A DNA stretch of 64,000 bases from Candidatus Woesearchaeota archaeon (GTDB lineage: Archaea; Nanobdellota; Nanobdellia; Woesearchaeales; JACPBO01): assembly GCA_030651135.1 (NCBI GenBank), contig JAUSCS010000006.1, positions 522,160 to 586,159 of the forward strand, given 5' to 3'. The translations under genes were made by a program, and so were the position numbers. The notes beneath the pieces were generated by a model that was not told the origin of the DNA, made no database searches, and worked only from the letters and a program-made list of their open reading frames with translations. Below are positions 6,651 through 62,877 of this stretch, piece by piece. Each line of letters begins with the position of its first letter. The stretch's first letter is position 1.

Positions 6651-7787
6651 TCATTTTACATTCAATTCATTAATTATGCTTTCAAAAACTTGGTTTATTT
6701 CTTTTGCATCGGAATTATCAGAATTATTAATTACCCAAATTTTACCTTGATTTTCCTCGTTAATTTTCTCTTGCAATTTATTTCTTTTTTGGTCAAATGT
6801 ATGCTGACTAGCAAGCCTCCTTTTAATTTGTTCAGCTGTAAGATCTTTTGACCTTAACCTTTTATTTTGTGTTGCTTTATCTACATTTAAAAAAACCACA
6901 TTATTATTGCATAAATAGGCCATCTCAGATTCAGCAATAAGTGCGGCATTCAATAATATTAGCCCTCTTTTGCCGTACAGCCCTCTTCTTAGCCTAACTA
7001 ATATGGGGGTGTACATTATTTCATTTAGTTTTTTTAATTGTTCTGTATCATTAAAAACAAGCTCACCAAGAATCTTTCTATCTATTGCTCCATCTGGGAG
7101 CCTCACACTATTTCCAAATGTTTTTGCAATGTTCTCCCTTATTTCCTCATACACAGATTCTTTTAGTTCGCCTAAAATCTGATGCCCTATGTCGTCTAAT
7201 TCAATATTATGTACAGAAATTCCTCTTTCTTTACCTAATTCCTCAAATTTCCTGCCGATATAAGATTTTCCTGATGATGGTTCTCCAGTAATACCGACAA
7301 TATACTGCCCCAACATCTTAGCTTCCAACCATTGCTTTACATAGAGAGGAACAAACTCATGCACTAGCCCCTGTTCTTTTTGCATCGCCTTAACAGAAGT
7401 AGAACTGATATGATTGAGTTCTGGCCTTGCAAACATTATGAAAGTATCGATGCCTAATTTTTGGCTTTCTCCGCATTGATGCTGGAGTTTTTCATAGTCA
7501 AAATCTAATGCAGTCCTTACCCCTTTAACAATCACCGGGATGGAATTTTCATAAGCATAATCAACTAAAAGTCCTGGAAATGCAACAACACTTACATTTT
7601 TTATTTTCTCTAGTGATTTCCTAACCATATCCATTCTTTCTTCTAAACTAAAAAGGGTTTGCTTGTTTGCATTTACACCTATTCCGACAACTAGTTCATC
7701 GAATACATTCGCAGATCTTCTTATTATATCTATATGCCCATAATGAATCGGATCTGCTGAAAATGCATAAATTGCTTTCTTCATCAT
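6651..7787 (-). CDS. bifunctional phosphopantetheine adenylyltransferase / dephospho-CoA kinase (bacterial-type CoaD–CoaE fusion)
   Basis: N-terminal YAFSADPIHYGHIDII (HxGH nucleotidyltransferase, CoaD-like). Central IVGITGEPSSGKSY P-loop matches CoaE GxTGxxGSGKST. Confidence 0.7.
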   Translation of the reverse strand: MMKKAIYAFSADPIHYGHIDIIRRSANVFDELVVGIGVNANKQTLFSLEERMDMVRKSLEKIKNVSVVAFPGLLVDYAYENSIPVIVKGVRTALDFDYEKLQHQCGESQKLGIDTFIMFARPELNHISSTSVKAMQKEQGLVHEFVPLYVKQWLEAKMLGQYIVGITGEPSSGKSYIGRKFEELGKERGISVHNIELDDIGHQILGELKESVYEEIRENIAKTFGNSVRLPDGAIDRKILGELVFNDTEQLKKLNEIMYTPILVRLRRGLYGKRGLILLNAALIAESEMAYLCNNNVVFLNVDKATQNKRLRSKDLTAEQIKRRLASQHTFDQKRNKLQEKINEENQGKIWVINNSDNSDAKEINQVFESIINELNVK

Positions 7788-8162: not shown

Positions 8163-8957
8163 ATGATACTAGTTGACGTGCACGCGCATCTTGACCATCA
8201 TAAGTTTGAAAACAATCTGGGCAATGTTATAGAGAATTCCAGAAAAGCAGGGGTTAAAGCTATAATAACATCCGGCATAAACAGAAAAACCAACAGATTA
8301 ATCTTGGAAATAGCAAAAAAATACCCCGATATTGTAAAGTGCTCCTTCGGCCTGTATCCGATAGATGCATTGGATAAAGAGATCGAGGCAGATCCTAAAA
8401 CATTTGTCAGGGATATTGAGCCGCTAAATGTTGACGAGGAGCTTTTATGGATAGAAAAAAACAAGGACAAATGCGTTGCAATCGGAGAGTGCGGACTTGA
8501 TTTTCATTGGGTTCAGGGAAAGAATGAAGAGCAGAAAAAGGCTTTTCAGAAAATAATCGCAGTAGTTGAAAAAATAAAAAAACCGATAATAGTCCATTCA
8601 AGGAAAGCAGAGCTGGAAGCCATTGAAATGCTGGAAAGCTCTAAAATAAAAAACATTGTAATGCACTGCTTCTCAGGCAGCAAAAAGCTGATAAAAAGAG
8701 CAGCTGACAACGGCTGGAGCTTTTCAATTCCTCCCATTATTGTAAGATTGCAGCATTTCCAATTGTTAACAGAAATGGTCAATATAAATCAGTTATTGAC
8801 AGAAACAGATGCTCCTTATCTCTCGCCTTATCCGGACAAGATAAATGAGCCTGCTTTTGTGATTGAAACAATAAAAAAGATCGCTGAGATCAAGGGCTTT
8901 GATGTCGAGGAAACAGCAAACAGCATTTATTTGAATTATAAGAGAATGTTCGAATGA
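8163..8957 (+). CDS. tatD: TatD-family metal-dependent hydrolase/DNase
   Basis: DVHAHLD N-terminal motif, GECGLD, HSR motifs. Confidence 0.85.
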   Translation: MILVDVHAHLDHHKFENNLGNVIENSRKAGVKAIITSGINRKTNRLILEIAKKYPDIVKCSFGLYPIDALDKEIEADPKTFVRDIEPLNVDEELLWIEKNKDKCVAIGECGLDFHWVQGKNEEQKKAFQKIIAVVEKIKKPIIVHSRKAELEAIEMLESSKIKNIVMHCFSGSKKLIKRAADNGWSFSIPPIIVRLQHFQLLTEMVNINQLLTETDAPYLSPYPDKINEPAFVIETIKKIAEIKGFDVEETANSIYLNYKRMFE

Positions 8958-8980: not shown

Positions 8981-9226
8981 AAAAACACCACCACTGACGC
9001 AGATGCGACAGGGGTTGCTCCCCAAGTTTTTAGCAAAAACTTGGCAAAAACATATGAGGCATAAAGCCTCATGCCACGACCAGATTGTTTTGAATGCTAG
9101 TCGTGGCGTGGAGCTTCATGCTCCACATTGCGTGCCAACTGAGCGTAACCAGTTGCGGGGTGTCGCATAGGGCAAAGCGAACATAGTGAGCTTTGACCGT
9201 CTGCTGTCAGTTGTGGTGGTGTTTTT
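8981..9226. ncRNA. GC-rich, highly structured RNA candidate of unknown family
   Basis: Terminal helix CACCACCACTGACGCAGA / TCTGCTGTCAGTTGTGGTGGTG. Nested helix ATGCGACA / TGTCGCAT. At least five internal hairpins (GGGGTTGCTCCCC; AAGTTTTT-AGC-AAAAACTT; ATGAGGC-ATAAA-GCCTCAT; GTGGAGC-TTCAT-GCTCCAC; CAACTG-AGCGTAA-CCAGTTG). GC content far above the local background. Confidence 0.4.
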
Positions 9227-9259
9227 CAGAGCATCATAATCAACAAATTTACTTGACAG

Positions 9260-9332
9260 GGGCTCATGGTCTAGCAGCTATGACGTCGCTCTCACTAAGC
9301 GGAGATCGGGAGTGCAAGTCTCCCTGGGCCCA
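9260..9332 (+). tRNA. tRNA-like gene, anticodon CAC (Val) with atypical T-loop (G at position 55) and D-loop lacking GG
   Basis: Cloverleaf: acceptor GGGCTCA/TGGGCCC (identical to tRNA-Val-TAC at 62494), anticodon stem TCGCT/AGCGG, loop CTCACTA, T-arm GGGAG-TGCAAGT-CTCCC. Confidence 0.5.
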
Positions 9333-9355
9333 TCATTGTTTTTTAAATTAGAAGA

Positions 9356-10405
9356 TTAGGAATTAATTGTCTCAAGAATTTTGTCTTTTTTATTAAGTAA
9401 AAAAGGATATCTCTCGGCATACAGATTAATATTCGCCTGTACTACTTTTTCATAAATATTATGATCGCCAACCCCAAGATAATTTATTTCAGTTCTCAAT
9501 TCTTTTATTAAATTTTTAAATATTTTTTTTTGAGAAGGACTTAATTCCTTATCATTCGAATCATAAACTATAAAACTAATCGCCCTTATAGCATCTGCAA
9601 TAATAGCGGCATTCTCGTCATATAGTTCTTTTTCTTTTCCGCAATCAACTATATCCTTTAATGGTTTGATTAAAGAGATGTTATGAATTTTCTCCTTTTC
9701 TTCAAGCGCCATTAAAATCCTCTCTAACCCGAAAGCAGCTGCTATGACTTCATTTTTTGTCAAACTGATATTGTTTTGCCCATTAAAAATATATTTATAA
9801 TTTAATTGAGAAGCAATTTCAACATATCTTCCATCAACCATTTTATAATAGATTTCAAAACCCGGTCCGCCAGCACAATTTGGTATTCTTGCAATGAAAA
9901 GATTTCGCCTTCCTTTTGTTGGGATTACCTGAGCTTCTCCTAGTAGATTTTTCCAAACATTGGCTATTTTTCTAGTCTCCTGCGAAGTGATGTGGACGTC
10001 ATCAATTTTGCAGTCTTCCAGATAAGTAACTAAGAGTTTATCTTTTTTAAGTCCAAGGACATTCGTTATTAATTCATAAATTTCTTGCGTATTCTTTTCA
10101 AAATTGAGCATATCGGGATTTCCAACCTGTGTAAATTCCATCATTTCAAAGAAGCTTAAATGCCTGTTGCTAATGCCTATTTTTGAAGAATCTGTCTCGC
10201 GCAAACAGCGTTCTGCAAGTGAAAAAGTAATTGGCGGTCTAGGGCATTCATCGCGCAGTATAGGATCGACTATATGATGGCCTGCACTGGGGTTAAATTT
10301 TCCATAACCGCCTCTGGCGTAAAGCAGGCCTACAGATTTTTCTAAAGGATAACCTGACTTTTCTGCAAAGTCAATTACATTTTTGATAATGTTTTTACTA
10401 TTCAT
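9356..10405 (-). CDS. stand-alone class-II aaRS catalytic-core paralog, AlaRS-like
   Basis: [27 protein letters not shown] aligns with the window's AlaRS [34 protein letters not shown] matches motif-3 GMGLER. 349 aa, no tRNA-binding or editing domain. Confidence 0.6.
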   Translation of the reverse strand: [349 protein letters not shown]

Positions 10406-10500
10406 AAGTTATAAAATATTATGCACTTTATTAAATTTATTTGTTGCTTTTCTACAAACAAATAGAAAAATTTAAATAAGGAGCGGTTTTAGATGCCAAA

Positions 10501-11232
10501 ATGGAAGAAATATTCAAGGAATTAGGACTTTCTGATAAGGAAATAAAAGCTTATTTGAAACTCTTAGAGCTTGGGCAAGCGACAACACAGAGGCTTTCAG
10601 AGGTTACAGCAATCAACAGAATAACACTTTATGATATTCTAAGATATCTGATAGAAAAAGGTTTTGTTGGTTATACAATCATTGATAAGGTCAAATATTT
10701 TTATGCAACACCGCCAAGAAATGTGCTAAATATGCTTAAAGAAAAAGAAAGAAAATTTGTTTCTATTCTACCTGAACTAGAGTCAAAGATGGAAATTATA
10801 GGCAAAAGACCAACTTTTCAATTATTCGAAGGAAAGGAAGGCATAAATACAGTAAATGAAGATGTCCTTAGAGAAAAAAACGAGATCCTTGCCTATGGTT
10901 CTTCCCAAATCATAAATAAAATCATAAAATATCAGGCAATAGATTTCATGAAAAAAAGGATAAAAAATAAAATTAAATGGAAAGGAATAAGTGATTCTGG
11001 TTTTAAAGAGCATATTTTTTTTGAAAAACCAGAGTATAAAAAAATAACTGTATTAAAAGTTGACGATTCATTTAAAAATATTGGAACATGGAATTACATT
11101 TACAACAATAAAATTGCAATTTTATCATTTAATAAAGAAAATTTTGTTGGAATTATAATCGAGGATGAAACTATAAATAAAACAGCAAAGTTAATTTTTG
11201 AAAAACTGTGGAAGCAAGCTAAAAAATCTTAA
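10501..11232 (+). CDS. TrmB-family transcriptional regulator
   Basis: N-terminal wHTH LSDKEIKAYLKLLELGQATTQRLSEVTAINRITLYDILRYLIEKGFV. Confidence 0.7.
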   Translation: MEEIFKELGLSDKEIKAYLKLLELGQATTQRLSEVTAINRITLYDILRYLIEKGFVGYTIIDKVKYFYATPPRNVLNMLKEKERKFVSILPELESKMEIIGKRPTFQLFEGKEGINTVNEDVLREKNEILAYGSSQIINKIIKYQAIDFMKKRIKNKIKWKGISDSGFKEHIFFEKPEYKKITVLKVDDSFKNIGTWNYIYNNKIAILSFNKENFVGIIIEDETINKTAKLIFEKLWKQAKKS

Positions 11233-11239
11233 TTATAGA

Positions 11240-12412
11240 ATGATCCAAAAAACAAGCTTTTATTCATGGAAAACAGGCAATCTGGCAAAAGGCTGCAGGC
11301 TTTGCGTAGAAGGATCTAAATTAGTTTTATTTGCAACTGGGCTTTGCCCCAGAAGCTGCTTTTACTGCCCTTTATCAGAGCAGAAAAAGAACAAAGATGT
11401 TGTTTATGCAGATGAGTGGAAGATCGAAAAAGACAGAGACATAATTGCAGAAGCAAAATCAATAAGCGCAAAAGGAGCTTCTTTGACTGGAGGCGATCCG
11501 TTCATAGTTTTAAACAGAAGCATTAAATACATTAAATTATTAAAAAAAGCCTTTGGAAAGAAATTTCATATACATCTTTACACACTTCCTGAATTATTAA
11601 CGCTCAATAAATTAAAAAAATTCTATAATGCGGGTTTGGACGAGATAAGGCTGCATCCTGATATTTTCAACAGGAAGAATTGGAATAAAATAGATTTAGT
11701 CAAGAAATTTAAATGGCAGATTGGAGTTGAAATTCCAGTCATTCCCGGTCACAAAAAGAAAATCATGGAACTGATTGATTATTTTGCGGATAAAATCAAT
11801 TTTTTAAATCTAAATGAACTGGAAATATCAGACACAAATGCAGACAAATTATTGAAAATGGGCTTTAGGTGCAAAGACGAAGTTTCTTATGGAATAAAAG
11901 GAAGCGAAGAGCTGGCTTTTGAATTATTAAAACACATCAGTAAAAAACATCCAAAGCCGAATGTCCATTACTGCACTGCAACTTTAAAGGACAAAGTTCA
12001 GTTGGCAAACAGGATAAAAAGAAGGGCAAAAAACACTGCAAAAGCTTATGACATTGTCAGTGAAGAAGGCATGCTGATCAGGGGCGCTGTTTATTTGCCT
12101 GATTTAAAGCCAGGATTTAGTTATAGAAAAAGATTGGAAAATATTTTAAAAAATAAAAAAATTAAAAATAAGCTTATAAAGAAATTAAACACAATAAAAA
12201 ATAATTTAAAAAAAGACTTTAAAATAAAAAACAGCTTAATAGATATTGACGAGCAGAAATTAAGGATATTGGCATCAATGAAAATAATTGATAAAATAAA
12301 AAATAAAATAATATTGAAAGGCCTCTGCCCGGCAATTGTTGAAGAATATCCTACATGGGATCAGACTGAAATAGATATCGAGTTTTTGCGCAATAAAGCA
12401 AAAACTATTTAA
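11240..12412 (+). CDS. radical SAM domain protein (pyruvate formate-lyase-activase-related, COG2108-like)
   Basis: CPRSCFYC = CxxxCxxC, TGGDPF. ATG at 11240 is in frame and avoids overlap with the upstream gene (track start 11198). Confidence 0.65.
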   Translation: MIQKTSFYSWKTGNLAKGCRLCVEGSKLVLFATGLCPRSCFYCPLSEQKKNKDVVYADEWKIEKDRDIIAEAKSISAKGASLTGGDPFIVLNRSIKYIKLLKKAFGKKFHIHLYTLPELLTLNKLKKFYNAGLDEIRLHPDIFNRKNWNKIDLVKKFKWQIGVEIPVIPGHKKKIMELIDYFADKINFLNLNELEISDTNADKLLKMGFRCKDEVSYGIKGSEELAFELLKHISKKHPKPNVHYCTATLKDKVQLANRIKRRAKNTAKAYDIVSEEGMLIRGAVYLPDLKPGFSYRKRLENILKNKKIKNKLIKKLNTIKNNLKKDFKIKNSLIDIDEQKLRILASMKIIDKIKNKIILKGLCPAIVEEYPTWDQTEIDIEFLRNKAKTI

Positions 12413-13607: not shown

Positions 13608-16538
13608 ATGGAGCTAAAAAAAATAAACGAATTTACGTGGCAGATACCGAAAACAGGCAACATGAAGGTTCCTGCAATAATCTATGCTTCAGAGAAGCTG
13701 ATAGAGAAGATAAAGCAGGACTTGACATTAAAGCAGTCGGAGAATGTTGCAGCATTGAAAGGGATCCAGACAGCATCATATACAATGCCAGATGCTCATC
13801 AAGGATATGGGTTTCCTATCGGTGGTGTTGCTGCGTTCGACATGGATGAAGGCATTATAAGCCCTGGCGGTGTTGGTTATGATATTAATTGTTTAACGGA
13901 AGATGCAAGAATATTGACTGAGCAAGGATATTTCAAAGAAATAAGAGAGTTCGAACATGATTTTATAGAAGTTGAGAACCTTAATTCAAAATATGCCTTG
14001 AAATCAAAAATGTGCCAATTAAAGGTAATTTCATTTGACTCTTCCCAAAATTGTTTTTCTTCCAAACAAGTTAATTATTTTATGAAGAAAAAACATTTTG
14101 GTTCAATTGTCAACATCAAAACTAAATTAGGATATGCCATTCAGTTAACAGAAGAACACCCGATATTATCAAAGTCAGGTATGATTGAATCTAAACTATT
14201 AAATCAAGGAGAACAAATAGCAATAAATCCTTTTGAAGGGGTTGAGTTTGAAAAGACTAAAGAGGATTTTATTTTAGCCACAGAAAATGAATTTGAAAAA
14301 AAACAGAGAGAAGAACTAATAAAAAGGGAGATTTTACCATTAAGATTAACTAATAGTAAGCTTCCAATCATAACAAAATTGTTCGGATATTTGCTAGGAG
14401 ATGGAAGTATCTATATAAGCAATGGCAAGGGAAGGATATGCGCATTTGGTCAGAAAGAAGATCTTTTGGAAGTAAAAAGCGATTTTGAAAAACTTGGATT
14501 TTCTGCAAGGATTTATGGTAGAACAAGAGAACACACTATTGAAACTCAATATGGGAAAAAAATATTTTCAGCTAAAAATTATGAATTGCATGTATCTTCT
14601 ATAGCATTAACCAATTTATTCTTTAAATTGGGGTACCCTAAAGGAATAAAAACTTCAACTAAATTTTTAATACCTAGCTGGATAGTAGGGAGCCCTAAAT
14701 GGATGAAGCGATTGTTTATATCAGCCCTATTTGGAGCAGAGTTATCTAGCCCAAGAACCCATACAAAAACAGGTTTCGATTGCCCTGTCCTATCAATAAA
14801 TAAAATAGAAAATCGAGTAGAAAATGGAAGAGAATTTTGCATCCAATTGATGAATTTGCTTGAAGAATTTGAAGTAAAAACAGATAAAATAATTGAAAGA
14901 AAAGAATATAAAAACAAACAAGGAGTGACCTACAGGATAAGACTTCAAATTTCTTCAGAAGAAGATAATCTGATTAAGCTTTGGTCAAAGATTGGTTTTT
15001 CCTATAATCGAAAGAGAGATATTCTGTCCAAAATAGCAATACTGTACATTAAAGAAAAAAAGAACCTTGCTGGAATACGATCAGAAATTGCTGTCAAGGT
15101 AAAAGATTTTAAGAAGAAAGGGTTAAAGCTCAAAGAAGTCCAAAATTTATTAAAAAATGAATATGTGAATGATCGCTTTATAGAACGACATTATTACGAA
15201 AACGCAGGACAGAGAATTTCTTTAAATTTCATATCCTTCGAAGAATTCAAAAGATTGAAATTAAATGAATTTGAAAAATATGGCTTATTTTTTGATTTTG
15301 TCATTTCTGTTTCAAAAGTACCATATGAAGGAGATGTGTACGATCTAAATATAGATAAAACACATAATTTTGTAGCAAATAATATCATAGTTTCGAATTG
15401 CGGCGTCAGACTATTAGCAACAGACTGGGCTGAAAAAGACATTGCTGCAAAAAGAAAAGAATTGCTTAATGAGATCTTCAAAGAAGTCCCTGCAGGAGTT
15501 GGAAAGTCAGGAATCACAAAATTAAGCAAAGATATTTTGATGGAAATTCTGAAGAAAGGCGCAAGATGGGCTTTAGAGCAGGGTTATGGGACAAAAGAAG
15601 ATCTGGAAAGAACAGAAGAAAACGGCTGCATGAAGGCTGCTGATCCAGGCACAGTTTCTCAAAGAGCTTTAGAAAGGGGAATGCCGCAGTTGGGAACATT
15701 AGGAAGCGGAAATCATTTTCTGGAAATACAGAAAGTTGATCAAATCTATGACATAGAAACTGCAAAAGATTTTGGAATAACTGAAAAAGGCCAGATAACT
15801 GTTATGATACACTGCGGATCCAGAGGATTGGGGCATCAGGTTGCTTCTGATTATATCAAGGAAATGGAAGAAAAGCACGGGATAAAAGATCTGCCGGACA
15901 GGGAACTAGTTAATGCTCCTATTAATTCAGAAACAGGCCAGAGATACTATAAGGCAATGTGCTGCGCAATAAATTATGCTTTTGCAAACAGGCAGATGAT
16001 AGAGCACTGGACAAGGGATGTTTTCAATAGAATAATGGGCAGCTCAGATGGGATGAAGCAAGTTTATGATGTCTGCCACAATCTTGCTAAATTTGAAAGG
16101 CACAATGTTGATGGAAAGCAGAAATTAGTCTGCGTTCACAGAAAAGGCGCAACCAGAAGCTTTGGTCCAGGAAGAGAGGAGATTCCTGATGTTTACAGAA
16201 GCATTGGACAGCCGGTGATAATCCCTGGATCAATGGGAACTGCTTCGTATTTATTGGTTGGAACGAAAAAAGCAGAGGAGATCTCCTGGGGATCAACAGC
16301 CCACGGCGCAGGAAGAGTTGCATCAAGGAGTGAAGGATTAAGAACATTAAGAGGAGAGCAGGTTGCGCATGATCTTGAAAAGAAAGGCATAGAAGTCAAG
16401 GCAACATCATGGAAAGGGATCGCAGAAGAAGCTCCCCAGATGTACAAGGACATTGATGAAGTTGTCAGAGTTTCTCATGCGCTTGGGATCGGGAATATGG
16501 TCGTAAGATTAGTGCCGTTGGCAGTGATGAAAGGCTAG
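13608..16538 (+). CDS. rtcB: tRNA-splicing ligase RtcB, intein-containing
   Basis: Extein motifs PDAHQGYGFPIGGV and GGVGYDIN|CGVRLL are split by a 503-aa insertion. The extein total of 473 aa is normal for RtcB. Confidence 0.9.
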   Translation: MELKKINEFTWQIPKTGNMKVPAIIYASEKLIEKIKQDLTLKQSENVAALKGIQTASYTMPDAHQGYGFPIGGVAAFDMDEGIISPGGVGYDINCLTEDARILTEQGYFKEIREFEHDFIEVENLNSKYALKSKMCQLKVISFDSSQNCFSSKQVNYFMKKKHFGSIVNIKTKLGYAIQLTEEHPILSKSGMIESKLLNQGEQIAINPFEGVEFEKTKEDFILATENEFEKKQREELIKREILPLRLTNSKLPIITKLFGYLLGDGSIYISNGKGRICAFGQKEDLLEVKSDFEKLGFSARIYGRTREHTIETQYGKKIFSAKNYELHVSSIALTNLFFKLGYPKGIKTSTKFLIPSWIVGSPKWMKRLFISALFGAELSSPRTHTKTGFDCPVLSINKIENRVENGREFCIQLMNLLEEFEVKTDKIIERKEYKNKQGVTYRIRLQISSEEDNLIKLWSKIGFSYNRKRDILSKIAILYIKEKKNLAGIRSEIAVKVKDFKKKGLKLKEVQNLLKNEYVNDRFIERHYYENAGQRISLNFISFEEFKRLKLNEFEKYGLFFDFVISVSKVPYEGDVYDLNIDKTHNFVANNIIVSNCGVRLLATDWAEKDIAAKRKELLNEIFKEVPAGVGKSGITKLSKDILMEILKKGARWALEQGYGTKEDLERTEENGCMKAADPGTVSQRALERGMPQLGTLGSGNHFLEIQKVDQIYDIETAKDFGITEKGQITVMIHCGSRGLGHQVASDYIKEMEEKHGIKDLPDRELVNAPINSETGQRYYKAMCCAINYAFANRQMIEHWTRDVFNRIMGSSDGMKQVYDVCHNLAKFERHNVDGKQKLVCVHRKGATRSFGPGREEIPDVYRSIGQPVIIPGSMGTASYLLVGTKKAEEISWGSTAHGAGRVASRSEGLRTLRGEQVAHDLEKKGIEVKATSWKGIAEEAPQMYKDIDEVVRVSHALGIGNMVVRLVPLAVMKG
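13890..15398 (+). mobile_element. intein with LAGLIDADG homing-endonuclease domain inside rtcB
   Basis: Begins at Cys (CLTEDARIL) right after GYDIN. Ends ...VANNIIVSN before the C-extein CGVR. LAGLIDADG blocks LFGYLLGDGSIY and LFISALFGAE. Confidence 0.8.
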
Positions 16539-17758: not shown

Positions 17759-17845
17759 TCATATATAAATGTTGCGGTTTAAGCATGCTTTATTTTGGCA
17801 TATGAAGCTGCCAGGCTTTCACATCAGTCAGGGATATAGTTGTCA

Positions 17846-17880
17846 GATTAGTGCCGTTGGCAGTGATGAAAGGGTAGAGA
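17846..17880 (+). repeat. 35-bp direct repeat copy 2 (duplicate of rtcB 3' end)
   Basis: AGATTAGTGCCGTTGGCAGTGATGAAAGGGTAGAG. 34/35 identical to 16505..16539. Confidence 0.8.
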
Positions 17881-39889: not shown

Positions 39890-39988
39890 CGGGCCTAGGA
39901 GGATTTGAACCCCCGACCTTCAGCTTAGAAGGCTGCCGCTCTATTTGCCTGAGCAAAGTTAGTTGCTCACCAGACTGAGCTATAGGCC
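39890..39988 (-). tRNA. tRNA-Arg (TCT) with ~25-nt insertion in the D-loop
   Basis: Acceptor GGGCCTA/TAGGCCC, D-arm GCTC-AGTCTGGT[insert]TAGAGC, anticodon loop CTTCTAA, T-arm GGGGG-TTCAAAT-CCTCC. Confidence 0.6.
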
Positions 39989-40036
39989 CATAAGAACAAG
40001 AATTGGTTTTTTGTTTATAAATGTTATCAAAGAAAT

Positions 40037-41824
40037 TTATGCTTTAATCAAAACCGCCTTTATCCTTCTCACACCGGCAGCAACGCTTTCTTCCTTTATT
40101 ATCTTGAAATGCCCCAATTCAGAAGTATTTTTGACATGCGGACCGCCGCAGATCTCAACAGAAAAATCTCCAATGGAATAAACAAAGACTTTTTCTCCGT
40201 ATTTGTGCTCAAACACGCCCTGCGCCCCTTTTTTCTTTGCCTCATCCACAGTCATCTCTTCCTGCTTAACAGGCAGTGCTTCCTTTATTTTTTCATTAAT
40301 CAAATCTTCAACTTCTTTAAGCTCTTGCTCTGTCAATTTCCGGTCAAAATTAAAATCAAATCTTAATCTTTCCGGCGTTATGTTTGATCCTCTCTGGAAA
40401 ATATCCTTTTTCCCCAAAACAACTCTTAATGCCTGATTCAGCATATGAGTTGCTGTATGCAGCTTTGTTGTCTCTTCTGAAGAATCTGCAAGTCCGCCTT
40501 TGAATTTTTTCTCAGCCCCGATCCTGCTCAATTCCTGGTGCTTCTCAAATTCTTTATTAAATCCAGTTACATCAACGCTGACATTTTTTTCTTTTGCCAG
40601 CTCAGCTGTCATTTCAATCGGAAAGCCAAAGCTCTGGAATAGCAGGAATGCATTCTCGCCATCAATCTCTTTTTTATTTTTTATGATTTTTTCAAATTCT
40701 TTCAGCCCATTTTCAAGAGTTTTCCTGAATTTTTCATCTTCTTTTTTCAGTTCATCCAATATAAAATCCTTATTTTTTTCCAGTTCTTTATAATCGCTTT
40801 TGTGCAGCTCAATAGTTATTTTTGCCAATTCTGACAGAAATTCCTTTTCAATGCCCAATAGCTTTCCGTGCCTTATTGATCTTCTGATAAATCTCCTTAA
40901 GATATATCCCTGGTCAACATTCGAGGGAGCAATTGCCTTTTCATCTCCCAATATGAAAGTTGCAGCTCTTATATGGTCTGTTATGATTCTTACTGATTTT
41001 AGCTGCTCTTCATTTGGCTCCTTGATCTTGGCAATTTCCTTTATTTTGTCAATTATCGGCTTGAATGTCTCAATTTCATAGACTATTTTCTTTCCCTGCA
41101 GGACAGCAGCTGTCCTTTCAACACCCATTCCAGTATCAACATTTTGCTGCTTTAGCTTCTCGAATCTTCCATCTTTTGTTTTGTTGTACTGCATGAAAAC
41201 ATCATTCCATATCTCAAAATATTTCCCGCAAAAGCAGCCAGGCTTGCAATCATTGCTGCATTTTTCTTTTCCTGTATCGTAAAACATTTCACTATCTGGG
41301 CCGCAAGGACCGGTTTCGCCAGCAGGACCCCACCAATTATCTTTTTTCGGCAAAAAATAAATTCTTTCTTTCGGAATTCCAACTGAGAGCCAGATCTTGG
41401 CAGATTCCTCGTCTTTTGGCGCATCATTATCCCCTTTAAAGCACGTTACTGATATCTTTTCCTTATTTATTCCAAGCCATTTTCTGTCTGTCAGGAATTC
41501 ATAGCTCCATTCTATTGCTTCCTTTTTCCAGTAATCCCCTAATGACCAGTTTCCAAGCATTTCAAAGAAAGTAAGATGAGAAGAATCTCCGACTTCATCA
41601 ATATCATCTGTTCTTAAGCATTTCTGAACATCCACAAGCCTTTTTCCCTGTGGATGCGGCTGGCCTATTAAAAAAGGAACTAAAGGATGCATTCCAGCTG
41701 CTGTGAACAATACAGTGGGATCATGCTCCGGGATCAAAGAAGCAGAAGCTATTAGCTTGTGGCCTTTTTCGCTGAAAAACCCGAAATACAGATCTTTCAG
41801 CTCTTTTGATGTTAGTTGTTTCAT
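40037..41824 (-). CDS. alaS: alanyl-tRNA synthetase (catalytic + tRNA-recognition + editing domains; lacks C-Ala domain)
   Basis: Class II motifs (HLTFFEMLGNWS, GMGVERT). Editing-domain HTATHMLNQAL and CGGPHV. Confidence 0.9.
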   Translation of the reverse strand: MKQLTSKELKDLYFGFFSEKGHKLIASASLIPEHDPTVLFTAAGMHPLVPFLIGQPHPQGKRLVDVQKCLRTDDIDEVGDSSHLTFFEMLGNWSLGDYWKKEAIEWSYEFLTDRKWLGINKEKISVTCFKGDNDAPKDEESAKIWLSVGIPKERIYFLPKKDNWWGPAGETGPCGPDSEMFYDTGKEKCSNDCKPGCFCGKYFEIWNDVFMQYNKTKDGRFEKLKQQNVDTGMGVERTAAVLQGKKIVYEIETFKPIIDKIKEIAKIKEPNEEQLKSVRIITDHIRAATFILGDEKAIAPSNVDQGYILRRFIRRSIRHGKLLGIEKEFLSELAKITIELHKSDYKELEKNKDFILDELKKEDEKFRKTLENGLKEFEKIIKNKKEIDGENAFLLFQSFGFPIEMTAELAKEKNVSVDVTGFNKEFEKHQELSRIGAEKKFKGGLADSSEETTKLHTATHMLNQALRVVLGKKDIFQRGSNITPERLRFDFNFDRKLTEQELKEVEDLINEKIKEALPVKQEEMTVDEAKKKGAQGVFEHKYGEKVFVYSIGDFSVEICGGPHVKNTSELGHFKIIKEESVAAGVRRIKAVLIKA

Positions 41825-62285: not shown

Positions 62286-62330
62286 CTTTTTTAATTTTAA
62301 TTTTATTCAAAGTTTATAAGGTTTTTGATA

Positions 62331-62455
62331 TGTCGGAAATATCATCAGTCTTTTACTGATATATTTCCGAGCATGCTCAAAAACCACTTCAATGTAAGGT
62401 ATGGCTTAAAGGCGTACTGCACAATATGCCACCCGTCTGTAAGAGGTGGTTTTTG
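62331..62455. other. two inverted-repeat/hairpin elements between scpA and the tRNA cluster
   Basis: TCGGAAATATCATCAGT...ACTGATATATTTCCGA hairpin, and an element closed by AAAAACCAC/GTGGTTTTT enclosing ~60 nt. Confidence 0.35.
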
Positions 62456-62493
62456 ATAAAGTTTAAATATCATTCAAGAAATCTCCATATTAT

Positions 62494-62690: not shown

Positions 62691-62874
62691 GAGTCCGTAG
62701 CTCAGTCTGGTTAGAGCGCCGTGTTTAAGAAATATCTTAAACGCGTAAGTCTTATATGAGATTTTTGGACGCAATGCGAAAATCCAAAAATTCTCTAAGC
62801 CAGCCGGCGGTCTGGGGTTCAAATATCCCGGAGGGAACCAAATTCCTCGGGATTTGAAAGTCCCTGCGGACTCA
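62691..62874 (+). tRNA. 184-nt tRNA gene with multiple/large non-canonical introns (T-loop intron evident; possibly Leu-TAA)
   Basis: Acceptor GAGTCCG/CGGACTC. Canonical D-arm GCTC-AGTCTGGTTA-GAGC. 5' anticodon half CCGTG-TTTAAG. T-stem TGGGG/CCCTG enclosing TTCAAAT + ~37 nt ending TTTGAAAGT (same architecture as the tRNA-Cys T-loop insert). Confidence 0.5.
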
Positions 62875-62877
62875 TAT

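Follow-up and report, generated by a model that had tools for sequence, protein, structure and literature searches.

The window analysed here, a stretch of 64,000 nucleotides from the genome of a Candidatus Woesearchaeota archaeon (contig JAUSCS010000006.1), encodes a 349-residue protein derived from the catalytic core of alanyl-tRNA synthetase (AlaRS). In the reading we favour, and hold to be probable, this protein is a ligase for a substrate other than alanine and forms a small module with a TrmB-like transcription regulator. The neighbouring valine tRNA gene, tRNA-Val(CAC), is genuine and ancestral, the 246-nt structured RNA beside it is an expanded copy of a lineage-specific element, and these features are independent of one another. 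The reading is assembled from computed properties: the fold, residue pattern and distribution of the protein family, its linkage to TrmB-like genes, the absence of the module from relatives, the conservation of the tRNA and the covariation within the element. A first-pass annotation of the window had implied a functional link between protein, tRNA and RNA, which comparison with relatives does not support.

The protein, read on the minus strand from an ATG start, is identical to an NCBI entry from a metagenome-assembled genome of Candidatus Woesearchaeota, where it is named 'alanine--tRNA ligase-related protein'. Profile searches place it in the AlaRS family (Pfam PF01411, tRNA-synt_2c, E=1.3e-15, residues 62-348), and it is 26% identical to the genuine AlaRS encoded in the window. 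As the first-pass annotation had noticed, the two proteins share class II motif 2 and motif 3 residues in near-identical form (CLRxxD, HL(S/T)FFEM and G(F/M)GLER). Against the curated equivalogs for functional AlaRS, the 349-residue protein scores far under the cutoffs (68.6 bits against 457 for alaS TIGR00344; 61.1 against 529 for NF002436). An AlphaFold model built with 32 homologues is of high predicted quality (predicted local distance difference test score, pLDDT, 93.3; predicted template modelling score, pTM, 0.91), and its top 19 Foldseek matches are all AlaRS catalytic fragments of bacterial or eukaryotic origin (query TM score, TMq, 0.79-0.85; E ~1e-21). GlyQ folds, which represent the alpha subunit of glycyl-tRNA synthetase (GlyRS), reach a TMq of 0.41-0.43 with a root-mean-square deviation >12 A, and no GlyQ match was found in Pfam or NCBIfam profile searches. 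Because the structural matches so favour AlaRS (0.79-0.85) over GlyQ (0.42), we are confident that the modelled fold is an AlaRS-derived catalytic core and not a GlyRS alpha subunit, and the earlier description of a truncated AlaRS paralog holds.

The fold is that of the class IIc AlaRS catalytic fragments of E. coli (3HXU), A. aeolicus (1RIQ) and human (4XEM), with TMq of 0.8-0.85. The 349-residue protein has in common with AlaRS the residues R69, E183 and E209, the FFEM and GxER motifs, the ADHxRAxxF helix and a helical subdomain that extends to AlaRS residue ~360. The earlier statement that the protein lacks the tRNA-recognition and editing domains must therefore be narrowed: the helical first half of the tRNA-recognition domain is present, and what is missing is the second half (Mid2/Asp400), the editing domain and the C-Ala domain. 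In addition, the Asn303-type motif NEGRGY is replaced by SQxKIL in the AlaRS-like family, and the complete Mid1+Mid2 unit, in which Asn303 and Asp400 read the G3:U70 pair, is absent.

Residues were mapped in E. coli AlaRS numbering across 97 stand-alone homologues. The residues on the ATP and adenylate side of the pocket (R69, D76, F90, E183, E209, G239 and R242) are kept in every one, and both the motif 2 arginine (R69) and the motif 3 residues of the window protein (G226-E228-R229) are invariant in the family. The alanine side is rebuilt. N212 has become S or T in 96 of the 97 homologues, position 235 is D or E in none and carries a small or hydrophobic residue instead, W211 is replaced by G or A across the family, M43 by H and M216 by Y. 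In AlaRS, D235 binds the alpha-amino group of alanine. The corresponding changes in the window protein are Asn212 to Ser199, Asp235 to Ala222 and Trp211 to Ala198, and His43, Arg167, Tyr203 and Asn218 have arisen as new family-specific invariants. Measured against a functional AlaRS, then, the protein has the class IIc domain, the motif 2 arginine and GxER, and it lacks the alanine-binding Asn212/Asp235 pair and the Trp211/Gly237 context as well as the editing domain. From this comparison we take it to be neither a second AlaRS nor half of a split one.

The genuine AlaRS of the window provides the reference. It keeps the ATP-side residues together with W211, N212, D235 and G237, scores 948 bits against NF002436 (cutoff 529) and is of the short bacterial PRK01584 type, with 595 residues, no C-Ala and no GGKH/Lys73 loop in motif 2. 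The 349-residue protein has the same motif 2 deletion, which was considered as an argument against tRNA binding and dropped because the genuine enzyme also lacks the loop.

The residue pattern points to a protein that would retain ATP binding and stabilisation of an acyl-adenylate while taking a different substrate. Since the ATP-side residues are kept, the alanine pocket is rebuilt and parts of the tRNA-recognition and editing apparatus are lost, we infer an ATP-dependent adenylate-forming ligase acting on a carboxylate other than alanine, a substrate probably without a canonically held alpha-amino group. The acyl group would be handed to an acceptor other than tRNA-Ala. It is on these grounds that catalysis and the substrate class are proposed. 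The gene would be expressed as one half of an accessory module; the other gene of the pair, transcribed divergently, encodes a TrmB-like regulator that would probably bind an inverted repeat between the two genes, and in this genome the module appears to have been inserted at the 3' end of a tRNA gene.

The AlaRS-like family is rare. Its NCBI-named homologues (56 matches of 345-384 aa) come from Woesearchaeota and Patescibacteria, and their alignment has 34 invariant columns. The family accounts for 82 clusters at E<=1e-30 among 1.84 billion representatives and occurs in 4 of 185,579 species genomes; three further loci of the genome scan (L005-L007) proved to encode ordinary full-length AlaRS and were rejected as members. 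A literature search found no characterised member. PADLOC anti-phage defence models matched none of the AlaRS-like, TrmB-like or radical-SAM (S-adenosylmethionine) proteins, and PADLOC, phage and plasmid searches as a whole were negative or returned alaS matches only.

What the family does have is a partner. In five independent contexts (the window, L008/9, L003, L020/21 and L022/23) the AlaRS-like gene is divergent from a gene for a TrmB-like protein of ~243 aa. The window's TrmB-like protein belongs to the TrmB family by its N-terminal winged-helix domain (PF01978, E=8e-14), matches the characterised TrmB equivalogs over its N-terminal ~80 residues only and far under their cutoffs, and has orthologues at 56% identity in L008 and 34% in L003. 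The 95-nt region between the two genes of the window holds the inverted repeat TATTTGTT-N11-AACAAATA (10438..10464), and inverted repeats occupy the matching place in L008, L022 and L003. We infer that this repeat is a candidate operator. Members without a TrmB neighbour (L001, L004 and L024) lie in unrelated contexts; in L024 the AlaRS-like gene comes just after a gene for an amino-acid-binding-type protein.

Two of these other contexts, both in Patescibacteria, merit description. In L001 (2584..10360) the AlaRS-like gene and two genes without confident annotation lie between fusA and tuf; the companions encode a 244-aa protein with a sub-threshold adh_short match only and a 468-aa protein with no match. 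In L004 (2495..11872) the AlaRS-like gene is part of a co-directional cluster that is biosynthetic in look, with four radical-SAM genes (one with SPASM), a TsaD/Kae1-like gene, a Sua5/YrdC gene and a carbamoyltransferase gene.

The arrangement of the locus, including the anchors used to compare it with relatives, is as follows.

8163..8957, plus strand: TatD-family hydrolase, the left syntenic anchor for finding orthologous loci
8981..9226, plus strand: structured RNA element, 246 nt, outside the AlaRS-like module
9260..9332, plus strand: tRNA-Val(CAC), judged ancestral at the locus and outside the AlaRS-like module
9356..10405, minus strand: AlaRS-derived stand-alone protein, 349 aa, with the class II catalytic core and the helical half of the tRNA-recognition domain
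10438..10464, no strand: inverted repeat, candidate operator, between the AlaRS-like and TrmB-like genes
10501..11232, plus strand: TrmB-like transcription regulator, 243 aa, conserved family partner of the AlaRS-like gene and divergent from it
11240..12412, plus strand: radical-SAM gene, at the right edge of a ~1.9-kb insertion
40037..41824, minus strand: genuine AlaRS, 595 aa, the reference for residue comparison

Close relatives were recovered through homologues of TatD and of DUF2391. In L019 (TatD 92% identical), tRNA-Val(CAC) begins directly after the TatD stop codon, and the radical-SAM gene starts 2 nt past the tRNA. Organism B (TatD 91%) is represented by two contigs, L015 and L018, with an overlap of 30 nt; there, TatD precedes a 108-nt element, which is followed by tRNA-Val(CAC), a second element in inverted orientation and finally the radical-SAM gene. 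Both relatives lack the AlaRS-like and TrmB-like genes at this locus, and the database, which includes the assemblies of L019 and organism B, holds no homologue of the 349-aa protein at >56% identity. In L016 (TatD 68%), the tRNA, the radical-SAM gene and the element are all missing from the locus. Because relatives have the tRNA without the AlaRS-like and TrmB-like genes, the pair is, on this comparison, a ~1.9-kb insertion (9333..~11232) beside the 3' end of a pre-existing tRNA, and its adjacency to the tRNA and the RNA is most likely a matter of chance. A duplication of the tRNA end, of the att type, was sought around the insertion; no repeat of at least 9 nt was present except AT-rich strings.

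The radical-SAM open reading frame (ORF) of the window extends from TTG 11198, and its true start is probably ATG 11240. Similarly, the called radical-SAM start in L018 (321..344) lies inside the inverted element copy, and comparison with L019 and the window indicates ATG 345 (MIKKTKY...) as the true start.

The tRNA at 9260..9332 is called tRNA-Val(CAC) by ARAGORN and matches Rfam RF00005 with 50.6 bits (threshold 29). Every peculiarity that the first-pass annotation had listed was found again: the acceptor stem (GGGCUCA/UGGGCCC) matches exactly the one in tRNA-Val(UAC) at 62493, the anticodon is CAC, the D loop (AGCAGCUA) lacks GG, and in the T loop (UGCAAGU) position 55 is occupied by G. 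To these we add a U13.U22 mismatch and, in the anticodon loop (CUCACUA), U37. The gene thus departs from the near-universal G18, Psi55 and purine 37. Its D, T and anticodon loops are identical in three genomes, and the atypical positions are unchanged in L018 and L019, where the flanking intergenic DNA is unalignable. The two other orthologues differ from the window gene at 3 and 5 of 73 nt, among them changes that preserve pairing (U27.G43 to U27-A43 and G50-C64 to G50.U64). This constancy of the unusual positions leads us to regard the sequence as a genuine gene under selection, no pseudogene, and as ancestral at the locus.

An ungapped alignment of the 8-nt D loops of tRNA-Val(UAC), AGUGGCUA, and tRNA-Val(CAC), AGCAGCUA, suggests that G19 is kept and that position 18 is A (or, depending on the alignment, that position 19 is C). 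If so, the G19-C56 pair would survive and the 18-55 tertiary pair would be changed on both sides, from G.Psi to A.G. Departures from the elbow consensus are found in staphylococcal tRNA-Gly species used outside translation. The non-proteinogenic NP2 has U19 instead of G19, the proteinogenic tRNA-Gly has G18, G19, U55 and C56, and loss of U55/C56 in the other three is implied only (PMC4574755). The window tRNA and the staphylococcal species thus both depart from the G18G19 consensus; the latter exist in addition to canonical isoacceptors and supply Fem transferases, whereas the window tRNA has no linked transferase, probably keeps G19-C56 and shows a two-sided change at 18-55. By this analogy tRNA-Val(CAC) may have a special role, and nothing ties such a role to the AlaRS-like gene. 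An exact-pattern scan of Joint Genome Institute (JGI) metagenomes for the atypical T arm and acceptor stem (AGRTCNNNNGTGCAAGTCNNNNTGGGCCCA) found no match, with a pattern that also misses the relatives (variable loop AGGCC).

The first-pass annotation had described a multi-hairpin RNA upstream of the tRNA, and the segment 8981..9226 is indeed strongly structured: it folds with -116.4 kcal/mol (z = -8.9), none of 200 shuffles folds as well, and a GC-corrected scan of all 64 kb ranks it among the two strongest structure outliers. Its GC content is ~0.51, against ~0.3-0.4 in the flanks. The Rfam covariance-model search that had been proposed was run and yielded no match even at E<=10. The element is represented by three copies from two genomes (the window copy; B1, of 108 nt, in organism B; and B2, on the opposite strand), with z-scores of -5.8 to -8.9 and a single architecture. 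From the outside in, this consists of an outer stem of 8-14 bp, a bulge of 3-4 nt on the 3' strand, a 4-bp helix, a 1-nt bulge and a 6-7-bp helix that closes the junction; the window copy has an outer stem of 14 bp and a bulge of 3 nt. Junction hairpin A reads GGGGUUGCUCCCC in the window and GGGGUUGCUCC in the form common to the three copies, and hairpin B reads GGGCAAAGC...GCUUUGACC in the window and GGRCAAA...UUUGWCC in common form, followed by GUC. The window copy differs by an expansion of ~140 nt, with four to five extra hairpins in the junction (~9024..9160). By this comparison the 246-nt RNA is an expanded copy of a three-way-junction element of ~100 nt, and a lineage-specific one; it is gained, lost and inverted among near relatives and absent in L019 and L016.

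Does the element act as RNA, or is it a palindrome that moves as DNA? The second possibility, a mobile element like a miniature inverted-repeat transposable element (MITE) or a REPIN, with hairpins that stem from transposition or recombination, is a serious rival, and we consider it unlikely. It would account for the variation in presence, absence and orientation among near relatives, for the high GC content relative to the genome and for the near-exclusive use of Watson-Crick pairs. In organism B, moreover, the 108-nt element and 29 nt of additional sequence lie between the copies of a 9-bp direct repeat, GAATGATCG (L015 3655..3663 and L018 93..101), the first of which overlaps the TatD stop codon. 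Against this stands the pattern of substitution. The terminal stem sequences are wholly different between copies, even within one genome, while the pairing, the bulge positions and the internal motifs are kept. Of the 54 base-pair comparisons among the three copies, 27 are identical, 1 shows a one-sided change and 26 show two-sided changes; inverted repeats recognised by a transposase would be expected to keep their sequence. All pairs are canonical, and the four wobble pairs are all G.U on the sense strand, with no A.C. (The pairs were counted on a manual structural alignment, as the MAFFT alignment mis-registered the outer stem.) Nor were multiple copies found: the 64-kb window has one strict copy, plasmids, phages and JGI metagenomes gave no match, and an exact-pattern scan of the JGI metagenomes for the element core (CATAGGGCAAAGNGAACATAG) found none. 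The excess of two-sided over one-sided changes, together with the same-strand G.U pairs, speaks for a single strand that folds with a fixed polarity, in the simplest case RNA, and it is from this that we presume the element to be transcribed.

The element has features in common with RNase P RNA, signal recognition particle (SRP) RNA and Y RNA: a long stem with bulges joins its 5' and 3' ends, it has a multi-helix core, and it is GC-rich in an AT-rich genome and adjoins a tRNA gene. It differs in having no Rfam match, a 108-nt orthologue without a P4-like region and no counterpart in other relatives. A reduced RNase P RNA was pursued as a candidate, with a P1-P2-P3...P4'-like topology, a 9-bp P4-like pairing of AAAG[C]CUCAU with GUGAGCUUU and flanking strings that resemble CR-I and CR-V. 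It was rejected because the candidate P4 region has no equivalent in the 108-nt orthologue of organism B, because the GCUUU segment belongs to a local covarying hairpin (CAAAGC/GCUUUG versus CAAAAUUUC/GAAAUUUUG) and because the element is missing in L019 and L016. SRP RNA, C/D and H/ACA RNAs, the K-turn, the canonical bulge-helix-bulge, the hammerhead core and the integron attC site were set aside on inspection, as their required motifs are absent and both bulges are on the same strand.

The second-strongest structure outlier of the window lies at 62328..62456 on the plus strand, 36 nt upstream of tRNA-Val(UAC). In it a ~17-bp hairpin (UCGGAAAUAU...AUAUUUCCGA) precedes an inverted-repeat element of 80 nt (CAAAAACCACUUC...GAGGUGGUUUUUG), and its tail, CCGUCUG...GGUGGUUUUUG, resembles that of the 246-nt element.

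For the protein, a functional precedent is AcmF, a truncated AlaRS-like transferase of ascamycin biosynthesis that depends on aminoacyl-tRNA (PMC12945691). The 349-aa protein could likewise take an aminoacyl group from a charged tRNA to a small molecule or protein with no activation of its own, an alternative that we think has a small chance of being right. AcmF does exactly such a transfer; like our protein, it is a truncated stand-alone derivative of AlaRS, makes no Ala-tRNA and demonstrates that the scaffold can be reused for new chemistry. The retained helical part of the tRNA-recognition domain would suit such a role, as would the biosynthetic-looking radical-SAM/carbamoyltransferase cluster around the L004 member. 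However, AcmF is reported to have lost most of its ATP-binding residues and to carry N-to-Q and D-to-E changes that leave a carboxylate for the alanyl amine (PMC12945691), whereas the AlaRS-like family keeps the ATP side and never has an acidic residue at position 235. The signature by which we set the two apart is that of the published description of AcmF. The replacement of NEGRGY by SQxKIL also counts against a transfer from tRNA, and the settings differ, AcmF belonging to an actinomycete antibiotic cluster and the AlaRS-like family standing beside a TrmB-like regulator in genomes of DPANN archaea and of the candidate phyla radiation (CPR).

The D235E signature does occur in a separate stand-alone AlaRS-like subfamily of 405-420 aa from the search of representatives, in which N212 is kept and G237 has become V; this subfamily may be the better analogue of AcmF. 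Proteins of 910-1488 aa consist of two tandem copies of it, and 2 of them are fused to GAF and histidine-kinase-like regions.

Catalytic cores freed of their tRNA-recognition modules are familiar from EpmA/PoxA, GluQRS, AsnA, HisZ and the SerRS-like amino-acid:carrier-protein ligases, which derive from LysRS, GluRS, AspRS, HisRS or SerRS and most of which keep adenylation. To our knowledge none of them is derived from AlaRS and none is known to be paired with a TrmB-type regulator. Among them HisZ suggests a further alternative, a non-catalytic or regulatory paralog that would bind ATP or a ligand and work with the TrmB-like regulator without making a product. This would fit a family whose one conserved partner regulates transcription, whose substrate pocket has been remodelled and for which no conserved acceptor gene was found. 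We nonetheless think this improbable: both catalytic arginines, the two glutamates and motif 3 are fully conserved over ~100 divergent sequences, a degree of constraint more typical of an active enzyme, and several family members have no TrmB neighbour.

It is very improbable that the three neighbours form a functional triad, in which the AlaRS-like protein would aminoacylate or act on the adjacent tRNA-Val(CAC), the 246-nt RNA or both as dedicated acceptors, as the first-pass annotation had suggested. The idea draws on the proximity of protein, tRNA and RNA (all within 1.4 kb), on the departures of the tRNA at positions 18/19, 37 and 55, on the staphylococcal precedent of a tRNA-Gly likewise without G19 and on the adenylation residues kept by the paralog. 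The same tRNA, however, occupies the same locus in two close relatives that have neither the AlaRS-like nor the TrmB-like gene, the element is absent in L019 and L016, and 12 other family loci have no tRNA-Val, atypical tRNA or structured element nearby; what recurs there is the TrmB-like regulator. The molecular details agree. With G3-C70 in place of G3:U70 the tRNA is ruled out for canonical AlaRS recognition, its ValRS identity elements (A35, C36 and A73) are intact, and the protein lacks the Mid2/Asp400 half of acceptor-stem recognition and, like its family, the alanine-binding Asp235 and Asn212.

A split AlaRS is known in Nanoarchaeum, and the size and domain content of the protein resemble a catalytic alpha subunit, but the proposal of a split-AlaRS half, or of a GlyRS alpha subunit, with its partner encoded elsewhere is effectively refuted by the complete AlaRS in the window, the loss of Asp235 and Asn212, the poor GlyQ match and the absence of the gene from the locus in close relatives. 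The first-pass annotation had named, as the outcome that would undo its proposal, a conventional alpha subunit next to a normally expressed tRNA-Val(CAC); that outcome is half borne out, since the neighbouring gene behaves like a conserved tRNA-Val(CAC) and the protein is not such a subunit.

Several observations weigh against our reading of independent features with a non-alanine ligase. Retained ATP-side residues do not by themselves prove catalysis, and it is from sequence that the family's activity is argued. No conserved candidate acceptor or biosynthetic partner was found among the family loci, and the contexts without TrmB are heterogeneous. The helical subdomain that contacts the acceptor stem in AlaRS is kept, so that tRNA binding is possible. 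The element family comprises three copies from two genomes, and the 9-bp direct repeat around one copy in organism B points to mobility at the DNA level. Finally, the comparison covers the 64-kb window and short contigs from relatives, which may carry the module elsewhere or have a second, canonical tRNA-Val(CAC).

The wider neighbourhood holds genes for TatD, the TrmB-family regulator, the radical-SAM protein, archease and an intein-containing RtcB, with the genuine AlaRS 30 kb off. RtcB (13608..16538, plus strand) has 976 aa in the window and 473 aa in the relatives L016 and L018, which fits an intein insertion, and a 52-nt copy of the 3' end of its gene, 88% identical, lies 1.3 kb downstream (17828..17879). 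On the minus strand at 6651..7787, a single 378-aa ORF encodes both a CoaD-type, cytidylyltransferase-like domain and a CoaE (dephospho-CoA kinase) domain as a fusion, a bacterial-style pair that is unusual in an archaeon. Two further tRNA genes seem to have escaped detection. The first (39898..39990, minus strand), just downstream of the genuine AlaRS gene, was missed by ARAGORN and matches the Rfam model in part (model positions 10-63); it reads GGGCCUAUAGCUCAGUCUGGU[GAGCAACUAACUUUGCUCAGGCAAA]UAGAGCGG...CUUCUAA... and appears to have UCU as its anticodon and an intron interrupting the D-loop region. The second (62692..62875, plus strand) is a tRNA-like gene of ~184 nt between tRNA-Gly and tRNA-Glu that starts GAGUCCGUAGCUCAGUCUGGUUAGAGCGCCGUG, ends ...CUGCGGACUCA and probably has two or more introns at non-canonical positions.

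Unexpected chemistry has come time and again from stand-alone descendants of aminoacyl-tRNA synthetases, including lysylation of elongation factor P, glutamylation of tRNA, loading of carrier proteins and aminoacylation of antibiotics. The architecture of AlaRS has been unusually conservative, with AcmF as the only known catalytic-domain offshoot. A rare but conserved AlaRS-derived family in genome-reduced DPANN and CPR organisms, with its adenylation residues kept, its alanine-binding residues lost and a regulator of its own, is a concrete target in the search for a new activity and a sign that archaeal and bacterial episymbionts have exchanged genes. Our analysis also removes as wrong a tempting inference from gene adjacency and leaves in its place two further leads, a conserved tRNA with a two-sided 18-55 change and U37, and a covarying three-way-junction RNA outside the Rfam models. 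More speculatively, and as a possibility that we advance tentatively, the AlaRS-like/TrmB-like pair may be a cross-domain mobile module of ultra-small symbionts that encodes a new AlaRS-derived adenylate-forming enzyme, its substrate not alanine and its acceptor not tRNA-Ala; separately, tRNA-Val(CAC), with its co-varied A18.G55 elbow and U37, may be an isoacceptor outside ordinary decoding, and the element a new class of small RNA. If this is true, the AlaRS-like enzyme would represent a third functional type of AlaRS descendant, beside AlaX and AcmF.

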